DNA from: a virus
Taxonomy: Duplodnaviria > Heunggongvirae > Uroviricota > Caudoviricetes
Strand: one strand, 5' to 3'
Virus record (IMG/VR): IMGVR_UViG_2802429232_000006
Length of the DNA: 32,572 bases
Below are positions 1 through 32,572 of the stretch, in pieces. Both the position numbers and the translations under genes were made by a program. The notes beneath the pieces are model-generated. The model searched no databases, was not told the DNA's origin, and saw nothing but the letters and a program-made list of their open reading frames with translations. How positions within the stretch are numbered: position 1 is the stretch's first letter; each line of letters begins with the position of its first letter.

Positions 1-900
1 TTACCTTAACAGCGGGCAATCTGGTGGTAGCCGGCAACGCAATGCTGCCGGAAGTATTTCGATATGAAAATGTTGTCCGCTTAACGGTTCGCCATCAAGA
101 TTAAAGGTGATTTCATGCGGCGCTTGTATTTCGAACCATGCTGAAGCGCCGTCAATAATATTCGGGTTTTCTTCGTCAGGTTTTAAGGTTGAGAAGAGAG
201 CTGGAAGAATTTCATCGCCGGTGAAAATACGCAGTTGTAATAAACCATCATTGATCAGCGCATTTGGGCACAGTTGTTGACCTCCACCGGCTTGACGCCC
301 GTTGCCAATACCAATAACCAGCGCATCGCCTTGCCAGTGAAAATTTTCACCACGGATTTCACAGCGATCCGGTTGCAGCGTATCCATGCGCATTAAGCCG
401 TGAATGATGTAAGAGACGCCACCTAGCGCGGCTTTTAATTTCTCGGGTGTTTCCGTGGTGATGCGCGTACCAAATCCGCCCGTCGCCATGTTGATAAAAC
501 AGGTTTGTTTGTTGACCTGTGCCATATCAATCGCAATAGCGTTACCAGCAATTGCCAGTTTAAGTGCCTTATCCAGCGCCTCAGGAATACCCACACTGGT
601 GGCAAAATCGTTCGCTGTACCTAGCGGCAATATCCCCAAAGCAGGAATTTCATTGCCCTCACACTGAATCAACGCCGTGGAGACTTCATTAATAGTGCCA
701 TCGCCACCGCCGGCAATCACCGTTGCAACGCCAAGCTGGCGGGCTTCCTCAACAAAACGCGCAGCATCACCTTTCTCCCAGGTAACCCGCACATGGATAG
801 TCATTCCTTCCTCACGCAGCAGCATAATTGCTTCGCGTAATGTTTCATTGTCAGCACTTTTGCCGTTAAGAATCAGTAAGCTGGCGGGAAAATCTGCCAT
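1..900 (-). CDS. yegS: Lipid kinase YegS (diacylglycerol kinase-like), host gene
   Basis: 299-aa ORF with the GGDGT nucleotide-binding motif of DAGK-family kinases; recognised as enterobacterial YegS from memory; higher G+C than the cargo islands. Confidence 0.85.
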
Positions 901-986
901 GGTCGTATGCCTTTATGATTGGTCTGTAGATAGTGTAGAGCAGAAAAGAAAAGGCGGTGTCAGAACAGGATGAAAGTCGTAGTACA

Positions 987-1013
987 AAAAAATAAGCCCG
1001 TGTAAGGGAGATT
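987..1013. other. attL: Prophage attachment site attL core (P2-type 27-bp core)
   Basis: AAAAAATAAGCCCGTGTAAGGGAGATT lies between the yegS start and the int stop; matches the P2 att core as I recall it; no second copy inside the window. Confidence 0.6.
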
Positions 1014-1092
1014 TAGGGTGTCACCAGTAGGGGCTTTCAACGGTACAATGCGGGTTTGAGCGGCATAAATTACCACTGAAAGCCCTTAAACG

Positions 1093-2106
1093 TTACTCTA
1101 CTGTGGACACTATGTGGACACTCTCGGCCTCAGTACCACCTCTTAGCGGATTAAGAGAAATGGCGTCCTGAAGGTACTCTGGCGCAAAATGAGCGTAAAC
1201 CATAGTTTGCTCAATCCGCGTGTGACCTAGTATCCGTTGTAGCGTGATAATACTTCCTCCATTAATCATGAAATGAGTGGCAAAGCTGTGCCTTAGTGCA
1301 TGTGTGGCTTGCCCCATTGGCAAATCCGGTTTTATTGCTTTCATTGTTCGTCTGAAGCGAGGGTAATCAGCATCAGGGAATAAAAAACCTCGTTTGTTAT
1401 CCGCGATCATTTTGGCAACAGCCTCTGAGATCGGGACGGTGCGTGGTTTGTTTGTTTTCGTTTTAACAAACGTGACGCGGTTATGGATGATATTTTCTGC
1501 TTTCAAACGAGCTGCTTCTCCCCAACGTGCTCCAGTACTCAGGCAAAGAATCGCAATCTTTTTGTTGTCGCCGTCAAGAGCAGCAAGCAGTAAGGCAATT
1601 TCTTCCTGCGTGAGATAGCCTGTGTCTGGTTTTTCCTCCTTAAGCCTTTTTGTCCCTCTGATAGGGTGCTCACCAAAGAATAACTCCGCTTCAATCAGGG
1701 CTGTAAACATGCCGCTAATACATGTTAAATCACGATTGATACTCGAAGGTTTAATACCCTGACTTCTTCGGGTGGCGCAGTACTGGCTGATAAGCGATTT
1801 CGTAATTTGAAATGCGCATGGGTCATTCGTTATTTTTGTGAAGATTTCAATTTTTCCAAGATTAGATTTCCCATGCTCTTCGTGTTTACCCTTTAAATCC
1901 CACCAGATCTGTGTCAGCTCCGACAGACGTCGCTTGTCTGTTGGTTTTGATAGCCATTCTTTATTGTGGTGGTTGTACAACGTGTATTTCTCGAAAGCGA
2001 CAGCTTCGCTTTTCTTATCAAACTTCCTACGGATGCGTTTTCCATTACGTCCAGTAGGGCGGATGTCCACTTCATATCGACCATCATCGAGTTTTTTGAT
2101 TGCCAT
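1093..2106 (-). CDS. int: P2-type tyrosine integrase
   Basis: 337 aa, the P2 Int length; C-terminal R...HxxR...Y catalytic region (HALRHSFATH, MVYAHF); adjacent to att core and C repressor. Confidence 0.93.
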   Translation of the reverse strand: MAIKKLDDGRYEVDIRPTGRNGKRIRRKFDKKSEAVAFEKYTLYNHHNKEWLSKPTDKRRLSELTQIWWDLKGKHEEHGKSNLGKIEIFTKITNDPCAFQITKSLISQYCATRRSQGIKPSSINRDLTCISGMFTALIEAELFFGEHPIRGTKRLKEEKPDTGYLTQEEIALLLAALDGDNKKIAILCLSTGARWGEAARLKAENIIHNRVTFVKTKTNKPRTVPISEAVAKMIADNKRGFLFPDADYPRFRRTMKAIKPDLPMGQATHALRHSFATHFMINGGSIITLQRILGHTRIEQTMVYAHFAPEYLQDAISLNPLRGGTEAESVHIVSTVE

Positions 2107-2221
2107 CAGAAAACCCTCCGAGTGGTATGTTTTTTTGCGACTACTAATCGCTTTTTTCGTGGTGGCTGAAATTTAGCCACCAATAGTAGGCACTTGTGAT
2201 GAATATATTCACGATGAATTG

Positions 2222-2521
2222 TTAACCAGTCTTTTGACCGGAGTGGGGCGACGTTGTTTCGTTTTGCCCAAAGTGTGCGAGAGCGGGCGCAATTTGCCCG
2301 GACTCAGGAGCGATCTGATTGGTCATGAACCATAAAGTGTATTTGGTGAATTGTGGGGTCTGCAGGATGTTCATCATGACATCTGTTGGAGGTGTTGAAC
2401 GACCACTTTCATAGTAACTCAGCGTGCCATACGGAACCCCTGTTAAATCAGCAAGTTGTTGTCTGCTCAAATACTCTGATTTTCGCATTAAGACTATCTT
2501 CTCGCTTATCGTGTTTGACAT
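2222..2521 (-). CDS. C: Immunity repressor C
   Basis: 99 aa (P2 C length), HTH-like segment LSRQQLADLTGVPYGTLSYYE; divergent from cox across the operator region. Confidence 0.9.
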   Translation of the reverse strand: MSNTISEKIVLMRKSEYLSRQQLADLTGVPYGTLSYYESGRSTPPTDVMMNILQTPQFTKYTLWFMTNQIAPESGQIAPALAHFGQNETTSPHSGQKTG

Positions 2522-2635
2522 GGTGTTTAGATCTCAATAGTATTTAGTTTAGATGTAGATTGTTTAGTGCTTGGATGTGGGCACTAAAAGGCATTATAAG
2601 ACATTAAACGCAATTCATGAGGGCTAGAGGACGAC
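2522..2635. promoter_or_regulatory. Pe/Pc divergent early promoter-operator switch region
   Basis: Intergenic between divergent C and cox; direct repeats GTTTAGAT at 2525-2532 and 2547-2554 (22 bp apart) plus partial GTTTAG at 2562-2567, consistent with P2 C operator half-sites. Confidence 0.6.
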
Positions 2636-2911
2636 ATGAGCAAGCAAGTAACACTCATGACTGATGCGATTCCTTATCAGGAGTTCGCAAAACTAATAGG
2701 AAAATCGACAGGAGCGGTTCGTCGGATGATTGATAAAGGAAAGCTGCCTGTAATTGATATGACCGATCCACAATCAGCTTCAGGTCGTGCAGGTGAATAT
2801 TGGGTATACCTTCCGGCATGGAATAACGGACTAAAACTGGCTTATGAAAGCCGCCCTAAAGAGATTCGTGACGGCTGGTTGATGTGGTTAGGTCTCGGTG
2901 AACCACGTTAA
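2636..2911 (+). CDS. cox: Cox excisionase / transcriptional regulator
   Basis: 91 aa (P2 Cox length); first gene of the rightward early operon. Confidence 0.9.
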   Translation: MSKQVTLMTDAIPYQEFAKLIGKSTGAVRRMIDKGKLPVIDMTDPQSASGRAGEYWVYLPAWNNGLKLAYESRPKEIRDGWLMWLGLGEPR

Positions 2912-2921
2912 GGAGAACCGT

Positions 2922-3092
2922 ATGAATGAGCCTCGTTGTATTGCTCAGTTACTGCGTAACGAAAGCCCCAGGGCGATTGACTTCACCATCACCCACGGTA
3001 AGGGGCGTAAGGGAATCATTATCCGCACCAAAAAACAGAGTCCGTTAAAAAAGGCTCTGACCTTTCTGAAAAGCCGGAGGGTATGGAAATGA
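2922..3092 (+). CDS. Small early protein (P2 orf78 position), hypothetical
   Basis: ORF track gives a GTG start at 2898; an in-frame ATG at 2922 preceded by AAGGAG (2909-2914) is more plausible; basic 56-aa product. Confidence 0.5.
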   Translation: MNEPRCIAQLLRNESPRAIDFTITHGKGRKGIIIRTKKQSPLKKALTFLKSRRVWK

Positions 3093-3589
3093 CAGTGATG
3101 ACGCTCAATCTCGTTGAAAAACAGCCAGCAGCTATGCGCCGGATAATTGGTAAGCATCTTGCCGTTCCTCGCTGGCAGGATACATGTGATTATTATAATC
3201 AGATGATGGAGCGCGAACGGTTAACGGTTTGCTTTCATGCGCAGTTAAAACAGCGTCACGCAACGATGCGTTTTGAAGAAATGAACGACGTCGAACGTGA
3301 ACGGCTGGTTTGTGCAATTGATGAATTGCGTGGGGCATTCTCAAAACGCCGTCAGGTTGGTGCAAGTGAGTATGCATATATTAGTTTTTTAACAGTCAGT
3401 CAGCGTCGTACTTTATTTATGCATGCGGGATTGACTGAAAAAGAATTCAACCAGCCATACTGGCGAATTAATGAAGAATCATGTTACTGGCGTGATGCTT
3501 TATTCCGTGCATTACGTGAATTATTCAGCCTGTTTGAGTATGCACCGACAATTCTGACGTCGGTAAAACCAGAGCAATATCTGCATTAA
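3083..3589 (+). CDS. B: Replication protein B (helicase-loader-associated)
   Basis: 168 aa (P2 B is about 166 aa); GGAGGG RBS upstream of ATG 3083; position between cox and A. Confidence 0.8.
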   Translation: MEMTVMTLNLVEKQPAAMRRIIGKHLAVPRWQDTCDYYNQMMERERLTVCFHAQLKQRHATMRFEEMNDVERERLVCAIDELRGAFSKRRQVGASEYAYISFLTVSQRRTLFMHAGLTEKEFNQPYWRINEESCYWRDALFRALRELFSLFEYAPTILTSVKPEQYLH

Positions 3590-3652
3590 GTAATTAACCA
3601 GAGTTTTTAACGCACTTAATTGTGCGGGGCTTCTTTTTGCCTGGAGAAAGTC

Positions 3653-3877
3653 ATGCATACAGTTTCTGAAAATCAGTGCGGTAAATACGCATTACTGCTG
3701 CAACAGGCCAGAACCGAAGCACAGGCCGACGCAGCGACGCGCTTTTCTTCTCATCTTGACGCCATGATTCGCCACATCACAAAGGCGGAGTTATCCCGCG
3801 TGGAGATAGTCGAGCTGCTCAGTCAGGAGTCGGAAAAATTTCACAATATCGGATTGTCTCGCGGGGAGGTGCTTTGA
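3653..3877 (+). CDS. Hypothetical early protein (P2 orf80 position)
   Basis: ORF 3620-3877 has a TTG start; ATG at 3653 with GGAG 6 nt upstream is preferred; 74-aa product. Confidence 0.55.
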
Positions 3878-4179
3878 TGTCCTGTTCTCGTTCAGTTGTA
3901 TTACTGAATAACGCCTTAAAAATCGCCGTTATGAAAAATGGCGATTTATCTCTTATTCAACTTGGTCTTGATAAAGAAAAACGCGAAATAACTGAGTCTG
4001 TTATCGCGATTTATCAGAACGAATTAAATCTCCTGTCTGATGTGGTCAATTTACTTGTTAAACGCGCTGTATTTCACAAGCAAATCTCCTCCGTGGATGA
4101 ACTGACGAAATTAACGACAGAAATTGCCAGCTATTGCGCTGATGAATTTAAAAAACTTAACGACAAAAGGAGCTGGTAA
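3874..4179 (+). CDS. Hypothetical early protein (P2 orf81 position)
   Basis: 101-aa ORF, start overlaps the upstream stop (ATGA coupling). Confidence 0.6.
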
Positions 4180-4403
4180 TGCCGGACAACGTAGATTTTA
4201 TTCAGGAACAACAGGCTGAATTACTGGAGCGCCAGATTAACGCGGCAAGGGTAAAGCATTGCGGTGTTTCTGCGCTGGTTTGCGAAGAGTGTGACGCGCC
4301 AATACCTGCTGCCCGTCGTGCGGCTTATCCGTCAGCCACGCGTTGTGTTTCCTGCCAGTCAGTCTTTGAAGCAAAAAACAAACATTACCGGAGAACGGCA
4401 TGA
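4179..4403 (+). CDS. TraR/DksA-family C4 zinc-finger protein (P2 orf82 position)
   Basis: 74 aa with CxxC...CxxC (CEECDAPI ... CVSCQ) typical of TraR/DksA-like phage proteins. Confidence 0.7.
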   Translation: MPDNVDFIQEQQAELLERQINAARVKHCGVSALVCEECDAPIPAARRAAYPSATRCVSCQSVFEAKNKHYRRTA

Positions 4404-4675
4404 GTATTCGTATTGAAATTGGCGAACGTTATGTCGTTACCAGTGACAGCTTTCAGTTTATTCTCCACGAGAAAAAGAGAGCTGAAAGCGGTAAAAACGC
4501 CGGTCAGGAATGGCTGGCGGTGGTTGGTTATTACCCGAAATTAAGCCAGCTCGTTTCCGGCCTGATGCATCACGATATTCTTACCGGAAGCGCAAAGTCT
4601 TTTGCTGATTTAAACGCGCAGGTTGAGCAACTCAGCAAGCGTTGTTCAGAGGCTTTTAGCTCATATGGCCGTTAA
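4400..4675 (+). CDS. Hypothetical early protein (P2 orf83 position)
   Basis: 91-aa ORF, 4-nt overlap with the upstream gene. Confidence 0.6.
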   Translation: MSIRIEIGERYVVTSDSFQFILHEKKRAESGKNAGQEWLAVVGYYPKLSQLVSGLMHHDILTGSAKSFADLNAQVEQLSKRCSEAFSSYGR

Positions 4676-6785
4676 AGCCTCCGGGCGTTTTGTCCCTCCG
4701 TCAGCATTTGCCGCAGGCACCGGTAAGACGTTTACCGGTGCTTATGCATGGAACGCGCCACGCGAGGCCGTCGGGTGCGAAAGACCCCTTACACGTGACG
4801 AGATGCGTCAGGTGCAAGGTGTTTTATCCACGATTAACCGCCTGCCTTACTTTTTGCGCTCGCTGTTTACTTCACGCTATGACTACATCCGGCGCAATAA
4901 AAGCCCGGTGCACGGGTTTTATTTCCTCACATCCACTTTTCAGCGTCGTTTATGGCCGCGCATTGAGCGTGTGAATCAGCGCCATGAAATGAACACCGAC
5001 GCGTCGTTGCTGTTTCTGGCAGAGCGTGACCACTATGCGCGCCTGCCGGGAATGAATGACAAGGAGCTGAAAAAGTTTGCCGCCCGTATCTCATCGCAGC
5101 TTTTCATGATGTATGAGGAACTCAGCGATGCCTGGGTGGATGCACATGGCGAAAAAGAATCGCTGTTTACGGATGAGGCGCAGGCTCACCTCTATGGTCA
5201 TGTTGCTGGCGCTGCACGTGCTTTCAATATTTCCCCGCTTTACTGGAAAAAATACCGTAAAGGACAGATGACCACGAGGCAGGCATATTCTGCCATTGCC
5301 CGTCTGTTTAACGATGAGTGGTGGACTCATCAGCTTAAAGGCCAGCGTATGCGCTGGCATGAGGCGTTACTGATTGCTGTCGGGGAGGTCAATAAAGACC
5401 GTTCTCCTTATGCCAGTAAACATGCCATTCGTGATGTGCGTGCACGCCGCCAGGCAAATCTGGAATTTCTTAAATCGTGTGACCTCGAAAACAGGGAAAC
5501 CGGCGAGCGCATCGACCTTATCAGTAAGGTGATGGGCAGTATTTCTAATCCTGAAATTCGCCGGATGGAGCTGATGAACACCATCGCCGGTATTGAGCGT
5601 TACGCCGCCGCAGAGGGTGATGTGGGGATGTTTATCACTCTGACCGCGCCGTCAAAGTATCACCCGACACGTCAGGTCGGAAAAGGCGAAAGTAAAACCG
5701 TCCAGCTAAATCACGGCTGGAATGATGAGGCATTTAATCCAAAGGATGCGCAGCGTTATCTCTGCCGTATCTGGAGCCTGGTGCGCACGGCATTCAAAGA
5801 TAATGATTTACAGGTCTACGGTTTGCGAGTCGTCGAGCCACACCACGACGGAACGCCGCACTGGCATATGATGCTTTTTTGTAATCCACGCCAGCGTAAC
5901 CAGATTATCGAAATCATGCGTCGCTATGCGCTCAAAGAGGATGGCGACGAAAGAGGAGCCGCGCGAAACCGTTTTCAGGCAAAACATCTTAACCGGGGCG
6001 GTGCTGCGGGATATATTGCTAAATACATCTCAAAAAATATCGACGGCTATGCACTGGATGGTCAGCTCGATAACGATACCGGCAGGCCGCTGAAAGACAC
6101 TGCTGCGGCTGTAACCGCATGGGCGTCAACGTGGCGTATCCCACAATTTAAAACGGTTGGCCTGCCGACAATGGGGGCTTACCGTGAACTACGCAAACTG
6201 CCTCGCGGCGTCAGCATTGCTGATGAGTTTGACGAGCGCGTCGAGGCTGCACGCGCCGCCGCAGACAGTGGTGATTTTGCGTTGTATATCAGCGCGCAGG
6301 GTGGGGCAAATGTCCCGCGCGATTGTCAGACTGTCAGAGTCGCCCGTAGCCCGTCGGATGACGTTAACGAGTACGAGGAAGAAGTCGAGAGAGTGGTCGG
6401 CATTTACGCGCCGCATCTCGGCGCGCGTCATATTCATATCACCAGAACGACGGACTGGCGCATTGTACCGAAAGTTCCGGTCGTTGAGCCTTTGACTTTA
6501 AAAAGCGGCATCGCCGCGCCTCGGAGTCCTGTCAATAACTGTGGAAAGCTCTCCGGTGGTGATGCTTCGTTACCGGCTCCCACACCTTCTGAGCACGCCG
6601 CAGCAGTGCTTAATCTGGTTGATGACGGTGTTATCGAATGGAATGACCCGGAGGTCGTGAGGGCGCTCAGGGGCGCATTAAAACACGGGCTGAGAACGCC
6701 AAATCGTCAGCAAGGAAACGGAAGCCCGTTAAAACCACATGAAATAGCACCGTCGGGCAGATTGAACAGGTGGGAACGATTGTAA
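4665..6785 (+). CDS. A: Replication initiation protein A (rolling-circle nicking endonuclease)
   Basis: ORF track starts at 4623, but ATG at 4665 (MAVKASGRFVPP...) matches the P2 A N-terminus as I recall it; HWHMM motif resembles HUH-type initiator; phage ori expected inside the 3' part. Confidence 0.88.
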   Translation: MAVKASGRFVPPSAFAAGTGKTFTGAYAWNAPREAVGCERPLTRDEMRQVQGVLSTINRLPYFLRSLFTSRYDYIRRNKSPVHGFYFLTSTFQRRLWPRIERVNQRHEMNTDASLLFLAERDHYARLPGMNDKELKKFAARISSQLFMMYEELSDAWVDAHGEKESLFTDEAQAHLYGHVAGAARAFNISPLYWKKYRKGQMTTRQAYSAIARLFNDEWWTHQLKGQRMRWHEALLIAVGEVNKDRSPYASKHAIRDVRARRQANLEFLKSCDLENRETGERIDLISKVMGSISNPEIRRMELMNTIAGIERYAAAEGDVGMFITLTAPSKYHPTRQVGKGESKTVQLNHGWNDEAFNPKDAQRYLCRIWSLVRTAFKDNDLQVYGLRVVEPHHDGTPHWHMMLFCNPRQRNQIIEIMRRYALKEDGDERGAARNRFQAKHLNRGGAAGYIAKYISKNIDGYALDGQLDNDTGRPLKDTAAAVTAWASTWRIPQFKTVGLPTMGAYRELRKLPRGVSIADEFDERVEAARAAADSGDFALYISAQGGANVPRDCQTVRVARSPSDDVNEYEEEVERVVGIYAPHLGARHIHITRTTDWRIVPKVPVVEPLTLKSGIAAPRSPVNNCGKLSGGDASLPAPTPSEHAAAVLNLVDDGVIEWNDPEVVRALRGALKHGLRTPNRQQGNGSPLKPHEIAPSGRLNRWERL

Positions 6786-7012
6786 ATACCCCATATAAGA
6801 GTTGTTCTTGCTCAACATGGCATCTGAACGCAAAGATAAAAGCCTGGGAGGCATACAGATAGTCCTGCTGTAAGTTAGTTGGAAAAAGATTGATTTACTT
6901 TATTACAGGAAGCCTCGATAAAATAATTCTAACGTGGATAAGGATATAAATTTATTATAATGAATCTGTCAATATTATAATAAATGTTATTTTTAAAGAG
7001 ATGAAAGGTAGG

Positions 7013-7042
7013 GTTGTTGTTTGTTGGTTTTTGTGATATAAT
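7013..7042 (+). promoter_or_regulatory. Putative sigma70 promoter for the cargo cassette (extended -10)
   Basis: TTGTTG (7013-7018), 18-bp spacer, TG-n-TATAAT (7034-7042); about 40 bp upstream of the cassette start. Confidence 0.45.
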
Positions 7043-7082
7043 ATTAAATTCATGTAACTAGTAAATGCAAATGGAAAAAAGC

Positions 7083-8219
7083 ATGAGAATAAAATCACTG
7101 GAGACATATAACTCTCACAGTAAATTGAAAATTAATAAAATAGAATTCAAATCACTGACCTTATTGGTTGGTGCTTCAGGTGTAGGGAAAACACAAATAC
7201 TTCGTTCTATCAATAAAATAAAGTCTATCGCACATGGTGATTCCGTTAGTGGGTTTTGCTGGAACGTTGAGTTTAATGCTGAAGGTAATGATTATCAATG
7301 GTCTGGTGAGTTTGAGGCGCTGGAGGATTATGATGATTTTACTTATGGAATGTTTCATTTTGATGATGACGACAAGGTTGAACCAAAAATTATAAAAGAA
7401 GAAGTTAAAATCAATGGTTCAATTATTATCACCAGAAGTGGCGATGATATCGTTTATAATGACAGTAAAACAGTTAAGCTGGCTTCTACAGTTAGTATAG
7501 TTCATCACTTGCGTGAGGAAGATGATATTTCGGTTATACACAAGTCATTTTCACGAATTGTGCAAGTTGATGATGATGAAATGCATAAGGTGTTTCCTAG
7601 AAAAAATAAAGATGCTTCAGAGGATGAAGAGCTTAGCATCAATGATATCAGAGAGAAGTCATTCTCTTTGAGTGCTAAGTTGTATTTGTGTCAAGAAAAA
7701 CAACCAGTCTACTTTCATCAAATTAAAAATTCATTTGTGGAGATTTTTCCATATATTGAAGATATAAAGGTGGTTAAGGTTGATACAAGAGGGATTCCTT
7801 TCTTTGTTCATTCTGTATATGCACTCAAGGTTAAGGAAAGAGGGATTGATGAGTGGATTTCGCACAATTCAATGTCTACCGGGATGTTGAAAACATTTGT
7901 CCAACTGGCATATCTGCATCTTAGCCCGACGGGAACTGTGTTCTTAATTGATGAGTTCGAGAATGGCTTTGGTGTTAACTGTATTAATGATATAACAGAT
8001 GTGCTACTACATCATGGTAATGATGTTCAGTTTATTTTGACGAGTCATCATCCTTATATTATAAATAACATACCGCTTGATAACTGGAAAATTATTTCAA
8101 GGAAGGCCGGGGTTGTTGATAACTATTCTGCGGATTTTTTTAATTTAAAAGAATCCAATCATGAGGCGTTTACTAAATTAATAAATTTAAGCGTTTATTT
8201 TGATGGTGCGGATAGATGA
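7083..8219 (+). CDS. ABC-type / AAA_21-like ATPase, candidate defense-system component
   Basis: Longest ORF starts at 7065; ATG at 7083 (MRIKSLE...) fits the family N-terminus. Walker A GASGVGKTQ, Walker B VFLIDEFENG, H-loop-like LTSHHP, signature-like SMSTGM; acidic inserts; AT-rich codon usage unlike flanking phage genes. Confidence 0.8.
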   Translation: MRIKSLETYNSHSKLKINKIEFKSLTLLVGASGVGKTQILRSINKIKSIAHGDSVSGFCWNVEFNAEGNDYQWSGEFEALEDYDDFTYGMFHFDDDDKVEPKIIKEEVKINGSIIITRSGDDIVYNDSKTVKLASTVSIVHHLREEDDISVIHKSFSRIVQVDDDEMHKVFPRKNKDASEDEELSINDIREKSFSLSAKLYLCQEKQPVYFHQIKNSFVEIFPYIEDIKVVKVDTRGIPFFVHSVYALKVKERGIDEWISHNSMSTGMLKTFVQLAYLHLSPTGTVFLIDEFENGFGVNCINDITDVLLHHGNDVQFILTSHHPYIINNIPLDNWKIISRKAGVVDNYSADFFNLKESNHEAFTKLINLSVYFDGADR

Positions 8220-8926
8220 ATTTGTATATTTTGGCTGAGGGGCGACAAACAGAGCGAAGAATCTATCCGGCATGGATAGGCGTTCTATCTCCATCTTTAA
8301 AGCAAGTTGAGTGTTTGTCTGCAATAGATAAAAACAACTATTATTTTATAAGCGGCGAGGGATATCCTCGTATGATTGATGTGACGCTTATTAATGCAAT
8401 TAAAGATATACATGATAACCCTAAATTTACCGATTTTTGGGTTGTGCTAGACTCTGAAGGAGAGGATGTTGAGGCAAGGAGAGAGCTTGTTAGAAATAAG
8501 ATTGATTCTTCTGGTATAGATATATCTCATTGTGAAGTAAATATAATAGTTCAAAATCCGTGCATAGAAACGTGGGGGCTAGGGAATCGAGTCATTATTT
8601 CGCCAAATAAGTTGACTGAATCTTTTTTGGACTATTATGAGCACTATGATGTGTCATCCAATGATCCAGAGGGTATGGGAAAGCCTCTTGCCTATGACGG
8701 ATCAATTGCTAAGTATCACGAGAGTTATTTAAAAAGTATGCTTGCTTTAAGAAATGCAATGTATACGAAAAAAAATCCAGCAGCATTGATGGAGCCTTCA
8801 TATTTGCAACAGCTTATATCCAGAGCTTATGCTGAGGATGGACATATACCAAGCTTTAGGCATTTTCATACGTTGGCTACTCAGCTTGAGGCTAAAGCGA
8901 AAATGTTGGAAAGCCGTGTAGCGTAG
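8216..8926 (+). CDS. Partner protein with TOPRIM/DUF4276-like acidic motifs, candidate effector
   Basis: 236 aa; ATGA overlap with ATPase stop; N-terminal LYILAEG..E, later VVLDSEGED and NPCIETW motifs. Confidence 0.75.
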   Translation: MNLYILAEGRQTERRIYPAWIGVLSPSLKQVECLSAIDKNNYYFISGEGYPRMIDVTLINAIKDIHDNPKFTDFWVVLDSEGEDVEARRELVRNKIDSSGIDISHCEVNIIVQNPCIETWGLGNRVIISPNKLTESFLDYYEHYDVSSNDPEGMGKPLAYDGSIAKYHESYLKSMLALRNAMYTKKNPAALMEPSYLQQLISRAYAEDGHIPSFRHFHTLATQLEAKAKMLESRVA

Positions 8927-8930
8927 AATT

Positions 8931-8977
8931 GACGACATCATGCTTTTTTGTGCATGATGTCGCATTTGTTTTTTTAT
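8931..8977 (+). terminator. Rho-independent terminator after the cargo cassette
   Basis: Stem GACATCATGC / GCATGATGTC (8934-8943 / 8952-8961), 8-nt loop, then a T-rich tract (8966-8976). Confidence 0.7.
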
Positions 8978-9060
8978 GTCCTCTCTAACCAATATTGCTC
9001 TGTTCGTTAGTATTTGTAGCGGGCATGCACCTGCATTAAAACCGACCCATGAAGTGGGCG

Positions 9061-9079
9061 GGCGAGGCGGGGAAAGCAC
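9061..9079. other. cos: cos site (19-nt cohesive end sequence)
   Basis: GGCGAGGCGGGGAAAGCAC matches the P2 cohesive end as I recall it; lies between the accessory region and Q as in P2. Confidence 0.7.
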
Positions 9080-18429: not shown

Positions 18430-18495
18430 TTGTGCCATTCCCGACACCTCATCGTCACATTGCCGCCGGTATGACCCGGCGGCATCCTTCCCGTT
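18430..18495 (+). promoter_or_regulatory. Late promoter PV region (Ogr-dependent)
   Basis: Intergenic upstream of V; partial dyad TGTG-N10-CAC at 18431-18447; assignment by P2 analogy. Confidence 0.45.
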
Positions 18496-20927: not shown

Positions 20928-23549
20928 ATGAGCACGAAATTTAAAACCGTTATCACTACTGCCGGAGCCGCAAAGCTGGCTGCCGCCACTGTCCCCGGCG
21001 GGAAAAAAGTAACCCTGTCTGCAATGGCCGTGGGTGACGGAAATGGCAAATTGCCGGTGCCGGATGCCGGTCAGACGAAGCTGGTGCATGAGGTCTGGCG
21101 TCACGCTCTGAATAAAGTCAGCGTGGATAATAAGAATAAAAACTATATCGTGGCTGAACTGGTTGTACCGCCCGAAGTGGGCGGTTTCTGGATGCGTGAG
21201 CTTGGTCTGTATGACGATGTCGGAACACTGATTGCGGTCGCTAACATGGCAGAAAGCTATAAGCCTGAACTGGCTGAAGGCTCCGGACGTGCGCAGACCT
21301 GCCGCATGGTCATTATTGTCAGTAACGTGGCGTCCGTTGAGCTGAGTATTGATGCCAGCACAGTGATGGCGACACAGGATTACGTCGATGACAAAATCGC
21401 AGAGCATGAGCAGTCCCGCCGCCATCCTGACGCCACGCTGACAGAAAAAGGTTTTACCCAGTTAAGCAGTGCAACAAACAGCACCAGTGAAAAGCTGGCA
21501 GCAACGCCAAAGGCAGTAAAAGCAGCCTATGACAATGCTGAGAAACGTCTGCAGAAAGACCAGAACGGTGGTGATATTCCAGATAAGGGCGCTTTTCTGG
21601 ACAATGTTGGCGTTACCAGCCTGACGTTTATGAAACACAATGGAATGATTCCAACCACTGACAATCTTGACTCCTATGGCCCAGAAGAAAAATATCTTGG
21701 AACGTGGTCATGCCCGTCACAATCCACTGCAAAACCAGAGTCTGGTTACCCTGAAGATAAAGGCAATGGGGTTCTGGAAGTATTCAATGCTGGTCGCTTT
21801 CACTGCACACAACGCTACACTACCCGAACCGGTAATATTTACATTCGGATGCTTGATGCAGAATGGAACCCTGTCAGTCCTGTATGGAGTGCATGGAGAG
21901 TTATTACAAGCGGGACTCGCCCATTAAGCACGCCAATTGACCTGAATTCTTTAGGTGGTGCGGAACACCTGGGAATATGGCGCAATAGCAGTACATCAAT
22001 AGCCTCATTTGACCGTCATTTCCCGGAGGAAGGGAGTTTTGGGCAGGGTATTCTGGAAGTCTTTGAAGGCGGTCTGTATGGGAGGATGCAACGTTACACC
22101 ACCCGTAGTGGGACTATGTACATTCGTGGACTGACTGCCTCATGGGATGCAGAAAATCCACAATGGGAGGACTGGATTGCTGTTGGGTATCAGTCCACGG
22201 GATGGACTTATTCAGGGGATCTTGATGACCTTTTAAAGCCTGGTATTTATAGCGTTACGAAACAGGCCACAAATGCACCTGTCACCGACTCTAAAGATCT
22301 TGCTGTTGGCTCAATAGTTGAAGTGAAAAAACGTTGTGATATTGAATCGTATATCCAGACATACACGACTGTTTCAGCAACGGATGCCTATAAAAACCGG
22401 ACATTTCAGCGAACCCGCGCCAGCGGTGAAACTGACTGGGGGGAATGGGCGGAAGTATACAACTCAAAATCATTACTCACTAAATTAGGTGTCGGCGGTG
22501 TTACCGACAGGTTATCCAGTCTGGACTGGCAGACCTACGACTTTATACCGGGCAGCATGATAACTGTCAGGCTTTCAGATATGACCAATATTCCCGATGG
22601 GATGGAATGGGGCGTCATTGATACTAACCTGATAAATATCACTGTTGGCCCCAGTGAAGGCGGAGGTGTCGCCCGTTCAATGCAGGTATGGCGCAGCACT
22701 TCAAACAAAACCAACTATCGTTTTTTTACAGTCCGCTTATATGGAAATCCTGGGGAGCGTAGCTTCAATATTCGTCGGCTACCAATTATCGACGAAGCCC
22801 AGACATGGGAGGCAAAACAGACATTCAGTGCAGGCCTTTCTGGTGAACTGTCCGGCAATGCGGCTACAGCAACAAAGCTGAAAACGGCAAGGACAATTAA
22901 CGGCGTAAAATTTGACGGCTCGGCAAATATTGAAGCATTTCCGCCTGGTGTTCCGCTGCCGTGGCCATCAGATACACCACCTGCGGGCTATGCAATTATG
23001 CAGGGGCAGACGTTTGATAAGGCAGCATATCCGAAACTGGCTATAGCCTATCCTTCTGGTGTTATTCCAGATATGCGCGGCTGGACAATCAAGGGCAAAC
23101 CCGCCAGTGGGCGTGCCGTATTGTCACAGGAACAGGACGGGATTAAATCGCATACTCACAGCGCCAGTGCGTCAAATACGGACTTAGGAACGAAAACGAC
23201 CAGTTCATTTGATTACGGCACGAAGACGGTCAGTACATTTAACCACGGCACAAAATCAACGAACAGTACGGGCAATCATACGCACACTGTCGGTGGTGTT
23301 TATGGCGGCGACTCTGTCGGTGGAAAACAGCGTGTACAGGCTTCAGGAAACAATCAGGTGTCCAGCACCGCCGGAGCGCACGCCCATACGGTGGATATTG
23401 GTCAGCATAACCACACTGTAGGTATTGGTGCCCATGCACACACTGTGGCCCTGGGTGCGCACGGACACACCATCACGGTAAATGCTACGGGTAATACCGA
23501 AAACACCGTCAAAAACATCGCATTTAACTATATTGTGAGGCTTGCATAA
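20928..23549 (+). CDS. H: Tail fibre protein H (mosaic, extended C-terminal receptor-binding region)
   Basis: 873 aa versus about 669 in P2; N-terminal ~200 aa P2-H-like, then lower-GC region with tandem ~70-aa repeats and HxH-rich tip. Confidence 0.88.
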
Positions 23550-24127
23550 TGGCTTTCAGAATGAGTGCAGAAGCACAAACTATCCGCGTTTTCAATTTAC
23601 TTGATGGAACCAATGAATTTATTGGTGAAAGTGACGCATATATTCCGCCGCATACAGGTCTGCCTGCAAACAGTACAGATATTGCACCGCCTGATATTCC
23701 GGCGGGTTTTGCTGCCGTTTTCAATGCAGCTGAAATGAAATGGGAACTGATGGAAGACCATCGCGGAAAGACCGTCTACGAAACGAAAACGGGAGCAGCC
23801 ATTTATATTTCTGAACTTGGCGCATTACCTCCAGACGTGACAGCCATTTCCCCGGATGGGGATTATCAGAAATGGAACGGAAATGCGTGGGTGAATGATG
23901 AGAATGCAGAGCGTGATGCGCTTGTCAGAGCGGCTGACTCTCAGAAGAAAGAGCTGATTGCATATGCAGGTGAAATTATTGCCACGCTGCAGGATGCTGT
24001 CGATTTAGATATGGCTACCGAGGAAGAAAAGTTAAGCCTGACACACTGGAAAAAATACCGTGTGCTACTGAATCGCGTTCAGCCGGAAAATGCTCCGGAT
24101 ATAGAATGGCCAGAAATGCCGCAATAA
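23549..24127 (+). CDS. G: Tail fibre assembly chaperone G (Tfa family)
   Basis: 192 aa; 1-nt overlap with the H stop; Tfa-like sequence. Confidence 0.85.
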
Positions 24128-24455
24128 ATCGTATTAGCTCTGGTGTGAGATTACTCATCTATGGCACAGAGTAAAACCTAATCTGACTGTCCGCTCTGTG
24201 CTAGGAGCGGACGTGATGCATATCTGTCACCAAATTTAATGTGCCACTACAAACAGAGTATATAGTTGAATATTATAGTGCACCCCGGCCTCATGAATAT
24301 AACGGTGGATTACCGCCGAACGAGTCGGAAAATAGATACTGGAAAAACTCTAAAATCGAGGCCAGTTTTTGTTGTTCTCTACAATAATAATCGGATTTTC
24401 CCATGACAAGTTTAATAGTATTTAGGTGCCTGAAGTGAAGTTGAAGAAGCTATTG

Positions 24456-25535
24456 ATGAAAGTTGTGAAAGTGGTAAAGGAGCAGGTTCTAAGTACCGTT
24501 ATTTCGGGAATAATAGGCATAGCGGCTACAGTAGGGCTTTTCCATTTCACTTCACAGCCAATACGATCTGCTGATGTTCGCGAAAAATTAGTTGAAATGG
24601 CTCGGGAGTGCATCCAGCAGCAGCTTGCCACACATTTGGACTCAGTGGCGTTTGACTCAGTGGCTAGCGAGTCTCTCGATCTAAGCACCTCAAACTCCGT
24701 TGTAGTCTACGGAAGAGCTGTGAGCACAAATGGTGCCCTTAGCCGTTTCCTGATGGTCTTCGAGCCCTCTGGACAGAGTTTGATAGATAAGGTGGTTGGC
24801 AGACCTGGATTCTACGATATTGGGTATTGGGCAATCATCCCAGACGCAGGGGACGACGAGGTTGTGGCTTCTTCAGTAAACATTGAAGACCTCGACAAAG
24901 ATGGTAACAAGGACATACTAGTCCGCTTAAAGTCAACTTACGCGGATGGTGTATCCAAAGGGCTTCTTATACTTAAAAAGGATATCCATGATGTATGGCA
25001 TTTGATGGGGCTTCCATCAATGACAGAGATCATGCATTCCATTGCTGCAGGTCAGCCTCCCCAGCCGGAAGGTCTTCACCTTCCACTTCCGGCAATACAA
25101 TGGTTTAGTAATGACGAAAAACTCAAACCAAAGTCTGATATCAAACAATATCTTAATTGGGAAATTGACGAAGATAACTTGCAGGTCGCTGATTCCACTG
25201 GAAATCATTCTTTTTGGATGTTCAGAAACGGCACCAAGATAAAAATGTTCGAGAATGGACAAGCCGGCTACAAGCACTTTGGTGTACTGGTCAACATCAA
25301 TGATGAAGAGGCGATACAGGGAAGGCATCATCTCATGGTCAGCTTTTTCAAGATAGAGAATAATAGTTTGGTTCCTGATCCGAATTGGAACTGGGCCTAT
25401 CCCATGTTCTCTATCGGATTAGAGGATAGCCAAGAAGTTGAATTGAGTGACATGCAGGAAGCGGGCTTACAAGCTCATGTTTCTGGTAGCTCCGTTTTCG
25501 GCCTGACAGAGTTTGGGAAAATGGACTCAGATTAA
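24456..25535 (+). CDS. Hypothetical membrane-anchored protein, cargo at the Z/fun hotspot
   Basis: ATG at 24456 (359 aa) preferred; longest ORF starts at GTG 24426 (369 aa). Single N-terminal TM helix (VLSTVISGIIGIAATVGLFHF), then soluble domain with no recognisable catalytic motif; AT-rich relative to flanks. Confidence 0.7.
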   Translation: MKVVKVVKEQVLSTVISGIIGIAATVGLFHFTSQPIRSADVREKLVEMARECIQQQLATHLDSVAFDSVASESLDLSTSNSVVVYGRAVSTNGALSRFLMVFEPSGQSLIDKVVGRPGFYDIGYWAIIPDAGDDEVVASSVNIEDLDKDGNKDILVRLKSTYADGVSKGLLILKKDIHDVWHLMGLPSMTEIMHSIAAGQPPQPEGLHLPLPAIQWFSNDEKLKPKSDIKQYLNWEIDEDNLQVADSTGNHSFWMFRNGTKIKMFENGQAGYKHFGVLVNINDEEAIQGRHHLMVSFFKIENNSLVPDPNWNWAYPMFSIGLEDSQEVELSDMQEAGLQAHVSGSSVFGLTEFGKMDSD

Positions 25536-25846
25536 TATTCGCTAACCTTACCAACGAAGAGCAGGTCACAGGTATGGCCTAATTATGTTTTCAGAGGAGT
25601 CAGGGCTCAAGAATGCCCCCAGATAAGCCGTAAATCCTGTAGCGCAAAATCGTCTCAGATGACGCAGAGATATTAAAAACGCCTCAACCTGTTCATCAAT
25701 TAATTGATAGGTTGAACTGTTAGTTAAACTTTCACCAGCAGAAAGGTATGAACTTTTTCGACTCGCTCAAAGCTGGCTGTCAGAGCTGATAGCGTTTTGG
25801 CTACGTAAATTGTCAGTTGGAAACTGAGCGAGTACAAATCAAGACT

Positions 25847-28175: not shown

Positions 28176-30615
28176 CAATGTAAAATTACAGGTATTGCTC
28201 AGGGCTGTTGACCAGGCATCCCGCCCGTTTAAATCCATCCGCACAGCGAGTAAGTCGCTGTCGGGGGATATCCGGGAAACACAACAATCACTGCGCGAGC
28301 TGAACGGTCACGCATCCCGTATTGAGGGATTTCGCAAGACCAGCGCACAGCTCGCCGTGACTGGTCATGCACTTGAAAAGGCACGGCAGGAGGCCGAAGC
28401 CCTTGCCACACAGTTTAAAAACACCGAACGTCCGACCCGTGCTCAGGCGAAAGTGCTGGAATCCGCAAAGCGTGCGGCGGAGGACTTACAGGCGAAATAT
28501 AACCGCCTGACGGATTCCGTTAAACGCCAGCAGCGGGAACTGGCCGCTGTGGGAATTAATACCCGCAATCTTGCACATGATGAGCAGGGACTGAAAAACC
28601 GTATCAGTGAAACCACCGCACAACTTAACCGTCAGCGCGACGCGCTGGCGCGTGTCAGTGCGCAACAGGCAAAACTTAACGCAGTAAAACAGCGTTATCA
28701 GGCCGGAAAGGAACTGGCCGGAAATATGGCCTCGGTGGGCGCTGCCGGTGTGGGGATTGCGGCGGCGGGAACGATGGCCGGAGTTAAGCTGCTGATGCCC
28801 GGTTATGAGTTTGCGCAGAAAAACTCAGAATTGCAGGCCGTGCTAGGAGTGGCAAAAGACTCCGCCGAAATGACCGCACTCCGCAAGCAGGCGCGCCAGC
28901 TCGGCGACAATACCGCCGCCTCGGCAGATGATGCAGCCGGTGCACAGATTATCATTGCGAAAGCGGGTGGAGATGCTGCGGCTATTCAGGCGGCAACGCC
29001 GGTCACGCTGAATATGGCACTGGCGAATCAGCGGTCGATGGAAGAAAACGCGCAACTGTTGCTGGGGACTAAGGCATCCTTTCAACTGTCAAATGATGAT
29101 GTCAGCCATGTGGGCGACGTGTTGTCGGCAACGATGAATAAGTCGGCGGCTGATTTTCAGGGACTCAGTGATGCACTGACTTACCTCGGGCCGGTTGCGA
29201 GGACGGCAGGTGTAAGTCTTGAGCAGGCAGCAGCCATGACAGGTGTGCTGCATGACAATAACATCAGGGGGTCAATGGCGGGGACGGGTAGCAGTGCCGT
29301 TGTCACCCGATTACAGGCACCGACTGGAAAAGCATGGGATGCACTCAAAGAGCTTGGCGTTAAGACCTCGGACAAAAAGGGAAATATGCGTCCGTTGTTC
29401 ACCATTCTGAAAGAGATTCAGGCCAGCTTTGATAAACACAAGCTGGGAACGTCTCAGAAGGGGGAATACCTTAAAACCATTTTTGGTGAGGAAGCCCTGA
29501 AATCAGCGAACGTTTTACTGGCAGCGGCAGCAAGCGGAAAACTGGATAAGCTGACCGCCACGCTGAAAGCCTCGGACGGTAAAACGGAAGAGCTGGTTAA
29601 AATCATGCAGGATAACCTCGGCGGTGACTTTAAGGAGTTTCAGTCCGCTTATGAGGCGGTGGGGACAGACCTGTTTGACCAGCAGGAAGGCGCACTGCGT
29701 AAGCTCACTCAGACGGCCACAAAGTATGTGTTAAAACTCGACGGCTGGATCCAGAAAAACAAATCACTGGCGTCAACCATCGGCCTCATTGTCGGTGGCG
29801 CGCTGGCGCTTACTGGCATCATCGGTGCCATTGGTCTTGTAGCCTGGCCGGTTATCACCGGCATTAATGCCATCATCGCGGCAGCAGGCGCAATGGGGGC
29901 AATCTTCACGACGGTTGGCAGTGCTGTTATGACGGCCATCGGGGCGATTAGCTGGCCGGTTGTGGCTGTGGTGGCCGCCATTGTCGCCGGGGCGTTACTT
30001 ATCCGTAAATACTGGGAGCCTGTCAGCGCATTCTTTGGCGGTGTGGTTGAAGGGCTGAAAGCTGCATTTGCGCCGGTGGGGGAACTGTTCACGCCACTTA
30101 AGCCGCTGTTTGACTGGCTGGGTGAAAAGTTACAGGCCGCGTGGCAGTGGTTTAAAAACCTGATTGCCCCGGTCAAAGCCACCCAGGACACCCTGAACCG
30201 TTGCCGTGACACGGGCGTCATGTTCGGGCAGGCACTGGCTGACGCGCTGATGCTGCCGCTTAATGCGTTCAACAAACTGCGCAGTGGTATTGACTGGGTA
30301 CTGGAAAAACTCGGTGTTATCAACAAAGAGTCAGACACACTTGACCAGACCGCCGCCAGAACTCAAGCCGCCACGTATGGCAGCGGTGGTTATATTCCGG
30401 CGACCAGCTCTTATGTAGGTTATCAGGCTTATCAGCCGGTCACGGCACCGGCTGGCCGCTCTTATGTAGACCAGAGTAAAAACGAATATCACATCAGCCT
30501 GACGGGGGGTACTGCGCCGGGGACACAGCTTGACCGCCAGTTACAGGATGCGCTCGAAAAATACGAGCGGGATAAACGTGCGCGCGCCCGTGCCAGCATG
30601 ATGCATGACGGTTAA
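28168..30615 (+). CDS. T: Tail tape measure protein T
   Basis: 815 aa, the P2 T length; N-terminal coiled-coil, central hydrophobic G/A-rich segments. Confidence 0.93.
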   Translation: MSNNVKLQVLLRAVDQASRPFKSIRTASKSLSGDIRETQQSLRELNGHASRIEGFRKTSAQLAVTGHALEKARQEAEALATQFKNTERPTRAQAKVLESAKRAAEDLQAKYNRLTDSVKRQQRELAAVGINTRNLAHDEQGLKNRISETTAQLNRQRDALARVSAQQAKLNAVKQRYQAGKELAGNMASVGAAGVGIAAAGTMAGVKLLMPGYEFAQKNSELQAVLGVAKDSAEMTALRKQARQLGDNTAASADDAAGAQIIIAKAGGDAAAIQAATPVTLNMALANQRSMEENAQLLLGTKASFQLSNDDVSHVGDVLSATMNKSAADFQGLSDALTYLGPVARTAGVSLEQAAAMTGVLHDNNIRGSMAGTGSSAVVTRLQAPTGKAWDALKELGVKTSDKKGNMRPLFTILKEIQASFDKHKLGTSQKGEYLKTIFGEEALKSANVLLAAAASGKLDKLTATLKASDGKTEELVKIMQDNLGGDFKEFQSAYEAVGTDLFDQQEGALRKLTQTATKYVLKLDGWIQKNKSLASTIGLIVGGALALTGIIGAIGLVAWPVITGINAIIAAAGAMGAIFTTVGSAVMTAIGAISWPVVAVVAAIVAGALLIRKYWEPVSAFFGGVVEGLKAAFAPVGELFTPLKPLFDWLGEKLQAAWQWFKNLIAPVKATQDTLNRCRDTGVMFGQALADALMLPLNAFNKLRSGIDWVLEKLGVINKESDTLDQTAARTQAATYGSGGYIPATSSYVGYQAYQPVTAPAGRSYVDQSKNEYHISLTGGTAPGTQLDRQLQDALEKYERDKRARARASMMHDG

Positions 30616-31109: not shown

Positions 31110-32272
31110 TGCTGGATGCGCTGACATTTGATGCAGGCAGTACGCTGACGCCGGATTACATGCTGATGCTCGACAGCAGGGATATTACCGGCAATATCAG
31201 CGACCGTCTGATAAGCATGACCCTGACGGATAACCGGGGCTTTGAGGCTGACCAGCTTGATATTGAACTGAACGATGCCGACGGGCAGGTCGGGCTGCCG
31301 GTTCGTGGCGCTGTCCTGACGGTGTATATCGGCTGGAAAGGTTTTGCCCTGGTATGCAAAGGGAAATTTACCGTTGATGAGGTTGAACACCGGGGCGCAC
31401 CGGATGTGGTCACCATCCGCGCACGGAGTGCAGATTTTCGCGGGACGCTCAATTCCCGCCGTGAAGGCTCCTGGCATGACACCACGCTCGGTGCGATTGT
31501 TGAGGCAATAGCCTCCCGTAACAAGCTGGAAGCCAGTGTCGCTCCGTCACTGGCCGGAATTAAAATCCCGCACATCGACCAGTCGCAGGAGTCTGATGCG
31601 AAATTCCTGACCCGTCTTGCAGAACGCAACGGCGGTGAGGTGTCGGTAAAAATGGGAAAACTGCTGTTTCTCAAAGCGGGGCAGGGGGTGACGGCCAGCG
31701 GTAAAAAAATCCCGCAGGTCACCATCACCCGCAGCGACGGTGACCGTCATCATTTTGCGATTGCTGACCGTGGAGCCTACACCGGTGTAACGGCAAAGTG
31801 GCTTCACACCAAAGACCCGAAGCCGCAAAAGCAGAAGGTAAAACTGAAACGCAAAAAGAAAGAAAAACACCTGCGCGCACTGGAGCACCCGAAAGCGAAA
31901 CCAGTCACGCAGAAGAAAGCGCCAAAAGTACCGGAAGCGCGCGAAGGTGAATACATGGCCGGTGAAGCTGACAACGTTTTTGCCCTGACTACGGTATATG
32001 CCACGAAAGCGCAGGCCATGCGCGCCGCTCAGGCGAAGTGGGATAAACTGCAACGAGGCGTAGCGGAGTTCTCCATCAGCCTGGCTACCGGTCGGGCAGA
32101 TATTTACACGGAAACACCGGTTAAAGTGTCAGGCTTTAAGCGCGTCATAGACGAGCAGGACTGGACAATCACTAAGGTGACACATTTTCTGAATAATAGC
32201 GGCTTCACGACGTCCTTAGAGCTTGAGGTCAGGCTTTCTGATGTGGAGTACGAAACAGAAGATGATGAGTGA
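31109..32272 (+). CDS. D: Tail protein D (late control gene D)
   Basis: 387 aa, the P2 D length; lysine-rich internal segment. Confidence 0.9.
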   Translation: MLDALTFDAGSTLTPDYMLMLDSRDITGNISDRLISMTLTDNRGFEADQLDIELNDADGQVGLPVRGAVLTVYIGWKGFALVCKGKFTVDEVEHRGAPDVVTIRARSADFRGTLNSRREGSWHDTTLGAIVEAIASRNKLEASVAPSLAGIKIPHIDQSQESDAKFLTRLAERNGGEVSVKMGKLLFLKAGQGVTASGKKIPQVTITRSDGDRHHFAIADRGAYTGVTAKWLHTKDPKPQKQKVKLKRKKKEKHLRALEHPKAKPVTQKKAPKVPEAREGEYMAGEADNVFALTTVYATKAQAMRAAQAKWDKLQRGVAEFSISLATGRADIYTETPVKVSGFKRVIDEQDWTITKVTHFLNNSGFTTSLELEVRLSDVEYETEDDE

Positions 32273-32353
32273 TGTTTTTATTTTATCTGTTTGTTTTATA
32301 AGGATAAATTAACTAAAATGACATCATCAACAAAACCGGAAGAGGTGCTCGCG

Positions 32354-32572
32354 ATGTTTCATTGTCCTTTATGTCAGCATGCCGCACATGCGCGTACAAG
32401 TCGCTATATCACTGACACGACAAAAGAGCGTTATCACCAGTGTCAGAACGTGAATTGCAGCGCCACGTTCATCACTTATGAGTCGGTACAGCGATACATC
32501 GTGAAGCCGGGAGAAGTCCACGCCGTAAGACCGCACCCGTTGCCGTCAGGGCAGCAAATTATGTGGATGTAA
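32354..32572 (+). CDS. ogr: Late gene transcriptional activator Ogr (zinc finger)
   Basis: ATG at 32354 (MFHCPLCQHAAH...) gives 72 aa with CxxC...CxxC zinc finger; the ORF-track start at 32291 is an upstream extension. Confidence 0.9.
   Translation: MFHCPLCQHAAHARTSRYITDTTKERYHQCQNVNCSATFITYESVQRYIVKPGEVHAVRPHPLPSGQQIMWM

Follow-up and report, generated by a model that had tools for sequence, protein, structure and literature searches.

The DNA analysed here, a stretch of 32,572 nucleotides from a virus (the window in the following), begins in the host gene yegS and continues into a phage integrase gene, and between the two lies the 27-bp sequence AAAAAATAAGCCCGTGTAAGGGAGATT, which had been predicted to be the attachment-site core at the left junction of a P2-type prophage. 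The locus thus raises the question whether this sequence is the product of site-specific recombination, and if so, which host sequence was the target and where the second junction is located. In our reading, to which we assign a probability of roughly 0.93, positions 987-1013 are the attL core of a complete P2-type prophage that would have been integrated by Int-mediated recombination of attP with attB, the 3' end of cyaR between yegS and yegQ.

The left junction and the prophage

The 27-mer has a single exact match in the window, at 987-1013 on the plus strand; no other copy was found there with up to three mismatches allowed, the number expected in shuffled sequences being zero. In the GenBank record of phage P2 (AF063097) positions 24356-24382 are annotated as attP and Int core-binding site, and their letters are identical to AAAAAATAAGCCCGTGTAAGGGAGATT, which bears out the assignment as a P2-type core. 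At least 120 stretches in IMG/VR contain the exact core, which is found twice on some viral contigs. The features of the left end are as follows.

1-900, minus strand: yegS, lipid kinase, flanking host gene (299-aa ORF; Pfam DAGK_cat 3.5e-30, YegS_C 8.9e-11)
901-986, no strand: host arm (B) of attL, 86 nt of yegS upstream region, identical in the empty site of L042, core included
987-1013, minus strand as cyaR 3' end: attL core, 27-bp copy of the P2 attP core (exact unique match and P2 annotation)
1014-1127, no strand: P' arm of attL, with predicted Cox-binding stretch (1030-1103) and Int arm-type site (1101-1127)
1102 and 1113, no strand: TGTGGAC direct repeats (TGTGGACA-type) in the Int arm-type site
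1093-2106, minus strand: int, P2 tyrosine integrase, reading toward the core (337-aa ORF; Pfam Int_N 1.3e-24, Phage_integrase 8.7e-22)
2222-2521, minus strand: C, immunity repressor (99-aa ORF, collinear with P2 25591-25890)
2636-2911, plus strand: cox, excision directionality factor and Pc repressor (91-aa ORF, collinear with P2 26005-26280)

When positions 901-2200 were compared with phage records by megablast, the alignments to P2 and five close relatives (8 further records) started at query base 87, which is window position 987, with 99.3-99.8% identity. P2 similarity thus begins at the first base of the core, as expected for the left prophage junction that had been proposed, and host similarity ends at the other core edge, 1013. 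An ungapped comparison of 987-2200 with P2 revealed nine substitutions and no insertions or deletions (99.3% nucleotide identity); none of the nine falls in the core or in the annotated Cox-binding stretch, and within 1014-1127 a single base differs, 1112, which lies in the spacer separating the TGTGGAC repeats. The distances of 87 bp to yegS and 80 bp to int given originally hold as coordinate differences (987-900 and 1093-1013), the intervening DNA being 86 and 79 nt long.

Directly next to the core lies a P' arm that includes a Cox-binding stretch and repeats of the TGTGGACA type, followed by the gene of a P2-type tyrosine integrase. The sites in this arm were placed by projecting the protein_bind annotations of P2 without gaps (the offset is 386 relative to locus L001 and 23369 relative to the P2 record coordinates), and their protein-binding roles are therefore presumed from P2. 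The repeat consensus described for P2-type integrases is tgTGGaCa (PMC3448106). For cox, a Phage_Cox Pfam match was obtained on the counterpart of the gene in sister loci.

The remainder of the window is a P2-type prophage body (987-32572, plus strand; blastn against P2) arranged like P2 opened at attP, in the order core-int-C-cox-B-A, cargo, cos, Q P O N ... T U D ogr, and this gene order is P2-like and uninterrupted from int to the stop codon of ogr. The blastn segments and the features of the body are listed below.

987-6814: P2 24356-30183, 98.2% identity
9061-18431: P2 1-9369, 97.5% identity
18496-21533: P2 10308-13339, 90.4% identity
25762-32572: P2 17440-24254 (ogr stop), 93.5% identity
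7065-8219, no strand: cassette gene 1, AAA_21 ATPase (PADLOC AbiLi match, 8.3e-19)
8216-8926, no strand: cassette gene 2, 236-aa protein (weak AbiLii match, 8.5e-6)
9061-9079, no strand: cos 19-mer (P2 comparison)
32354-32572, plus strand: ogr, 72 aa, last prophage gene in the window, with its TAA stop at 32570-32572, the final window bases

The two-gene cassette (6815-9060) replaces the P2 orf91/tin/old region, and sister prophages at the same junction (L002, L004-L006) have HNH_2 or SIR2_2 genes at its position. P2-like phages reportedly possess a variable hotspot of anti-phage genes, and we take the cassette to occupy this known position. No alignment to P2 was obtained for the C-terminal part of the tail-fibre gene H, gene G and the fun(Z) position (21534-25761), where a 369-aa ORF (24426-25535) showed no Pfam or PADLOC match. 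The P2 gene orf30 is absent between S and V, and positions 18432-18495 are likewise not alignable.

The 3' end of cyaR as attachment site

An exact scan for the 27-mer in one genome per species yielded 21 loci. About a dozen Kluyvera species have the sequence in a single copy, as do prophage-free E. coli and Shigella loci. At cores that are not part of an attL (in Escherichia, Shigella, the approximately 12 Kluyvera species and two Enterobacter records) the next bases are always ACACAGGCTAAGGAGGTGGTTCC...TTTTTCAGC, and on the opposite strand Rfam recognizes there the full-length small RNA CyaR/RyeE (RF00112), its 3' end overlapping the 27-mer, with scores of 100.7 bits for E. coli K-12 (L012 7408-7493), 100.7 for Escherichia ruysiae (L036), 98.5 for Kluyvera georgiana (L024) and 100.7 for the metagenome contig L042. 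The window itself contains no match to full-length CyaR at the RF00112 gathering score of 47 bits. According to the structure line of RF00112, the terminator of CyaR is an 11-bp stem, AGCCUGUGUAA / UUACACGGGCU, with the loop UCUCCC; read as RNA, the core (AAUCUCCCUUACACGGGCUUAUUUUUU) comprises the final two bases of the 5' arm together with the loop, the entire 3' arm and the U tail. The core coincides with the 3' end of cyaR, an identity that the original prediction had left unrecognized. On this comparison attB consists of the final 27 bp of the sRNA gene cyaR (ryeE), and the copy in the window is a duplicated cyaR fragment, a non-functional stub rather than a cyaR gene. As the phage carries the same 27 bp, cyaR would be rebuilt at attR and the stub left at attL. 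It had also been considered that the 27-mer might be a common host sequence unrelated to prophage boundaries; common in hosts it is, but because it is the attB, and it is thus not unrelated to the boundary.

The stub also differs from the terminator in its predicted folding: the hybrid hairpin at attL folds at -3.6 kcal/mol, versus -15.9 kcal/mol for the full terminator at attR or attB, and a consensus scan for terminators found none in 800-1300. The idea that the attL stub terminates read-through from int into yegS was rejected on these grounds. A further observation concerns the run of A at the left core edge, which corresponds on the opposite strand to the U tail of CyaR and varies with context (window 983-993, L012 7400-7410, L042 4016-4026, and L034). 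There are seven A in the attL of the window and in the empty site and eight in the attL of the E. ruysiae reference; at attR and attP the run is six A followed by T, corresponding to a U6 tail followed by A in CyaR, whereas CyaR read from attB has seven U and then G. Lysogeny thus shifts the bases just past the CyaR U tract by one position.

Bobay et al. (PMC3603311) refer to ryeE as a "previously known" phage target in E. coli, citing Wassarman et al. 2001. cyaR (ryeE) as a phage target is thus already in the literature, and the arrangement of the junction is an ordinary, documented one. Other RNA genes serve phages in a similar manner: phage 186 is found in tRNA-Ile and Fels-2/SopE-phi in ssrA (PMC3448106), and phages are located at ryeB/sdsR in Salmonella and at ryeE in E. 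coli (PMC3603311). In all these integrations attB overlaps the terminator-proximal 3' end, one junction rebuilds the gene and the other keeps a stub. The window differs in that the target is an Hfq-dependent regulatory sRNA and not a tRNA or tmRNA, and in that the shared segment is short (27 bp), including solely the terminator loop, the 3' arm and the U tail.

The host flank (1-986) shows approximately 87% nucleotide identity to yegS of all 5,416 matching complete E. coli genomes, but 98.7% to the species representative of E. ruysiae (L034) and 100% to one contig of an SRA assembly (L003), the sole contig with such a match, which ends within the prophage. Within the host arm (901-986), conservation with E. 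coli reaches to about 979-982. The host of this prophage was thus tentatively an E. ruysiae-like bacterium and not E. coli, a species call that is based on a single locus. A P2-type integrase is found at this junction in all contigs that encode an identical YegS, together with at least three different sets of cargo genes, which suggests repeated lysogenization or exchange of cargo at one junction. As a source of an empty site these contigs were rejected, since every place read had a P2-type integrase or ended at the junction. Two records, CP112983.1 (L007) and NZ_CABVLQ010000001.1 (L034/L036), both start and end within prophage sequence of P2 type, approximately 3.7 kb in, right of attL and close to the replication gene A; these ends are probably an artefact of rotating circular assemblies.

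An empty site was defined as a window-type left flank, followed by the core and the start of cyaR, and this pattern matched one metagenome contig, L042. It matches window positions 13-1013 with 99.5% identity, the entire core included, and then continues with full-length CyaR and yegQ, with 99.3% identity to the flank of the E. ruysiae attR. The comparison with an unoccupied locus that had been proposed could thus be made within the same lineage: the order in L042 is yegS, 86 nt, core/cyaR and yegQ, with a single core between the two protein genes. The same empty layout with approximately 74 nt between yegS and core/cyaR is present in three Kluyvera species (L025, L029, L030). Recombination of attB with attP at an L042-type site would yield exactly the attL of the window.

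The right end and other explanations

As had been stated originally, the prophage extends to the end of the window with the ogr stop at 32572, where P2 similarity ends at P2 24254; the right junction with its attR copy lies outside, and no second core is visible in the window. The part of P2 beyond the window, P2 24255-24355, comprises 101 nt with the ogr terminator, an Int P-arm site and an IHF site. Projected onto the window, the following features are predicted from P2, K-12 and six loci encoding an identical D protein.

32573-32673 (virtual), no strand: predicted P arm, 101 nt
32674-32700 (virtual), no strand: predicted attR core

After the ogr terminator the P arm is predicted to read GTCGATGTGGTCAATGTGTGGACGTGACCAG..., and the core starts 102 nt past the last base of ogr in P2, in K-12 and in the six loci with identical D. 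The last 3.6 kb of these six loci are 99.9% identical to the window, and in each of them the core 101 nt past ogr is followed by cyaR-yegQ-yegP-baeR-baeS. All right flanks reached via the exact D protein of the window are of E. coli type and none is of E. ruysiae type. The contig of the E. ruysiae representative (4,651,588 bp) has an attL-type core at 4,647,905 and an attR-type core at 28,811, and the two are approximately 32.5 kb apart across the record ends. The attR of this very prophage can thus be inferred by pairing with conspecific and near-identical prophages on other molecules. The D protein of the window, together with ogr, is also found in L018 and L020 (~7465-8300), where neither a P arm nor the 27-mer follows the ogr terminator and the chromosomal site is a different one; one of the two adjoins a 170-aa gene and then fieF-pfkA-sbp-cdh. 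Since the P arm and the 27-mer are lacking at this other site, the same late genes appear to be combined there with a different integration module and site.

Because attR lies outside the window, the prophage might be a one-ended remnant in which the stretch from attL to ogr is present while the P arm and attR have been deleted or rearranged, so that there is no second core. Such remnants do occur at this locus, as in K-12, there with the left end lost. Against this stand the P2 gene order, which is unbroken from int to the ogr stop with cos present, and the conspecific reference and all near-identical right ends, in which P arm and core are found exactly 101 nt past ogr; in addition, loss of attR would deprive cyaR of its 3' end, which is otherwise kept in every locus examined. 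We thus regard a remnant as improbable. It is also very improbable that the prophage arrived ready-made, by homologous recombination or transduction of a lysogenic segment formed in E. coli instead of by Int-mediated integration. The right end of the window is indeed 99.9% identical to prophages in E. coli-type flanks, and chimeric-looking records with an E. coli-like yegQ exist in other genera (L021, L032), but the left host flank is of E. ruysiae type up to the core (98.7-100%), it lacks the yegR segment with which an attL imported from E. coli would have arrived, and the junction is the exact product expected from attP and attB at an L042-type site.

That 987-1013 is nothing but the native cyaR terminator of the host, with the prophage merely beside it, has hardly any probability left. 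This explanation draws on the 27-mer being a conserved host sequence, single-copy in the Kluyvera species and in the prophage-free E. coli and Shigella loci. Past the core, however, the next bases in the window belong to the P' arm of P2 (TAGGGTGTCACC...) and not to the body of cyaR (ACACAGGCTAAGG...), no CyaR is detected there by Rfam, and the core is contiguous with cyaR in the empty site, where the prophage is absent. The positions of the breakpoints already refute this explanation.

Integration of a complete prophage into the end of cyaR, as we propose, would proceed by the P2 integrase, a tyrosine recombinase, which together with the host factor IHF would recombine the 27 bp of attP with the 3' end of cyaR, located directly between yegS and yegQ in an E. 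ruysiae-like host. The resulting attL would consist of yegS, the B arm (901-986), the core (987-1013), the P' arm (1014-1127) and int; attR, beyond the window, would consist of the ogr terminator, a P arm with Int and IHF sites, the core as part of an intact cyaR, and yegQ. As the P' arm of attL has kept the Cox-binding stretch and the Int arm-type repeats of P2, excision is expected to occur as annotated for P2, by Int, IHF and Cox, with attR supplying the IHF site and the P-arm Int site. The near-identity to P2 leads us to infer that the recombination system may still be active.

The locus in E. coli, the K-12 remnant and the yegR segment

The preferred attachment site of phage P2 in E. coli is locI, and we take the attB at cyaR in the window lineage and in K-12 to be this site. 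The window resembles P2 at locI in the identical 27-bp core, in a P' arm that is identical but for the one spacer base (1112), in int (99% nucleotide identity) and in the neighbourhood, which extends from the yegS side to cyaR-yegQ with int beside yegS and ogr beside yegQ. It differs in its E. ruysiae-like host, in other cargo at the tin/old and fun(Z) positions, and in the host arm, which adjoins yegS directly (86 nt), whereas in E. coli a segment of approximately 810 bp containing yegR lies between yegS and the core. The order in an E. coli lysogen is yegS, yegR, attL, int (L011), and among 5,426 complete E. coli genomes at least 579 had yegS and a P2-type int in one matched place.

In K-12 the order is yegS, yegR, D' (213 nt), ogrK, P arm, exact core/cyaR and yegQ. 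This cryptic P2 remnant (yegZ/D', ogrK, attR) uses the same attB as the prophage in the window and is 97% identical to window positions 32060-32572. It differs in having lost everything from the middle of the attL core (...GCCCGTGTA, where the sequence breaks off) to within gene D, while the window keeps the left end and the whole prophage, its right junction being out of view. At the left joint of the remnant the truncated attL core, ...AAAAAAATAAGCCCGTGTA, is fused to GCAGAG... of gene D at the equivalent of window position 32060, and the bases GTA, in the middle of the core, are common to both partners (L012 6775-6795 compared with window 32030-32090). This hints at aberrant recombination at or near the strand-exchange region. 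The original prediction had pointed to a K-12 remnant consisting of ogrK, yegZ and yegR in this neighbourhood; locus, ogrK and yegZ/D' are confirmed, but yegR is part of a separate, older and far more decayed segment. The segments between yegS and the P2 core are located as follows.

L012, ~5975-6773: yegR segment
L011, ~1783-2591: yegR segment
L041, ~215-660: yegR segment

In E. coli this segment starts at the same host position as the core in the window, and it is absent from the window lineage (L042) and from Kluyvera. In L041 (Escherichia sp. MOD1-EC7003) it is shorter, its edges are less decayed and a piece of yegR is inverted. The left edge resembles a decayed core with P' arm (AAAAAATCAGTTCGAGTATGGGGGATTCAGTGGTTACCAGTAGGGCTTGCAATGG in L041, AAAAAATAAGCCCGTGTAAGGGAGATTTAGGGTGTCACCAGTAGGGGCTTTCAACGG in P2); its local alignment score in L041 is 45, compared with 16.0 +/- 2.2 for shuffled sequences, of which none out of 300 reached 45. 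The right edge, adjoining the intact core, resembles a decayed P arm, TCGATGTGGTCAATGGAAGA...ACCAGGGATAAATCCTTCTGTTTCA, with a score of 44 (shuffles 14.6 +/- 2.1; 0 of 300). The edges in K-12 score weaker but concordantly (left 22, reached by 3 of 300 shuffles; right 38, by 0 of 300). The longer spacers between yegS and core in other Kluyvera and Enterobacter loci were searched for decayed P2 arms as well and showed nothing above shuffles except a near-core repeat in L021 (Enterobacter hormaechei B56); the Kluyvera loci with spacers of 750-830 bp, which gave no such signal, serve as a negative control. In that record the near-core, AAAAAATAAGCCCGCGTAAGGG, lies 78 nt from the yegS start, and an exact core with cyaR and an E. 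coli-like yegQ (99%) follows at a distance of approximately 1.9 kb; its YegS has only 75% protein identity to YegS of the window, and L032 is listed alongside it. The arrangement points either to import of a segment from E. coli or to a further small element with core repeats at its two ends. YegR was also considered as a phage gene, but only two "phage" records contain it, one of them a 2.4-kb fragment, and both matches apparently represent host flank.

Judged by its edges, the yegR segment (roughly 450-810 bp, in E. coli and a close Escherichia species) is likely what is left, as a fossil, of an older P2-type prophage that had inserted into the same 3' end of cyaR. The right-hand core of this fossil would have survived because it is the cyaR terminator, which is kept perfect by selection. 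No paper stating this reading was found in the literature covered, which leaves out key older papers. If correct, the site preferred by P2 in E. coli would itself be an ancient attR, and the E. ruysiae-like host of the window would, like Kluyvera, have kept the ancestral, fossil-free site. Residual arm-type sequence (TCGATGTGGTCAATG...) beside locI might then influence site preference or excision in E. coli. The fossil around yegR would be a small evolutionary footnote that explains why the E. coli locus looks different.

For the prophage in the window, the left boundary is now fixed to the base, and the right boundary is predicted 102-128 nt beyond the window. The short "cyaR-like" 27-mer beside yegS in lysogens is a junction stub and not a second sRNA gene, and the well-studied cyaR gene of K-12 is itself in the attR configuration. 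P2-type phages use the same small-RNA terminator as a landing pad across Escherichia species.
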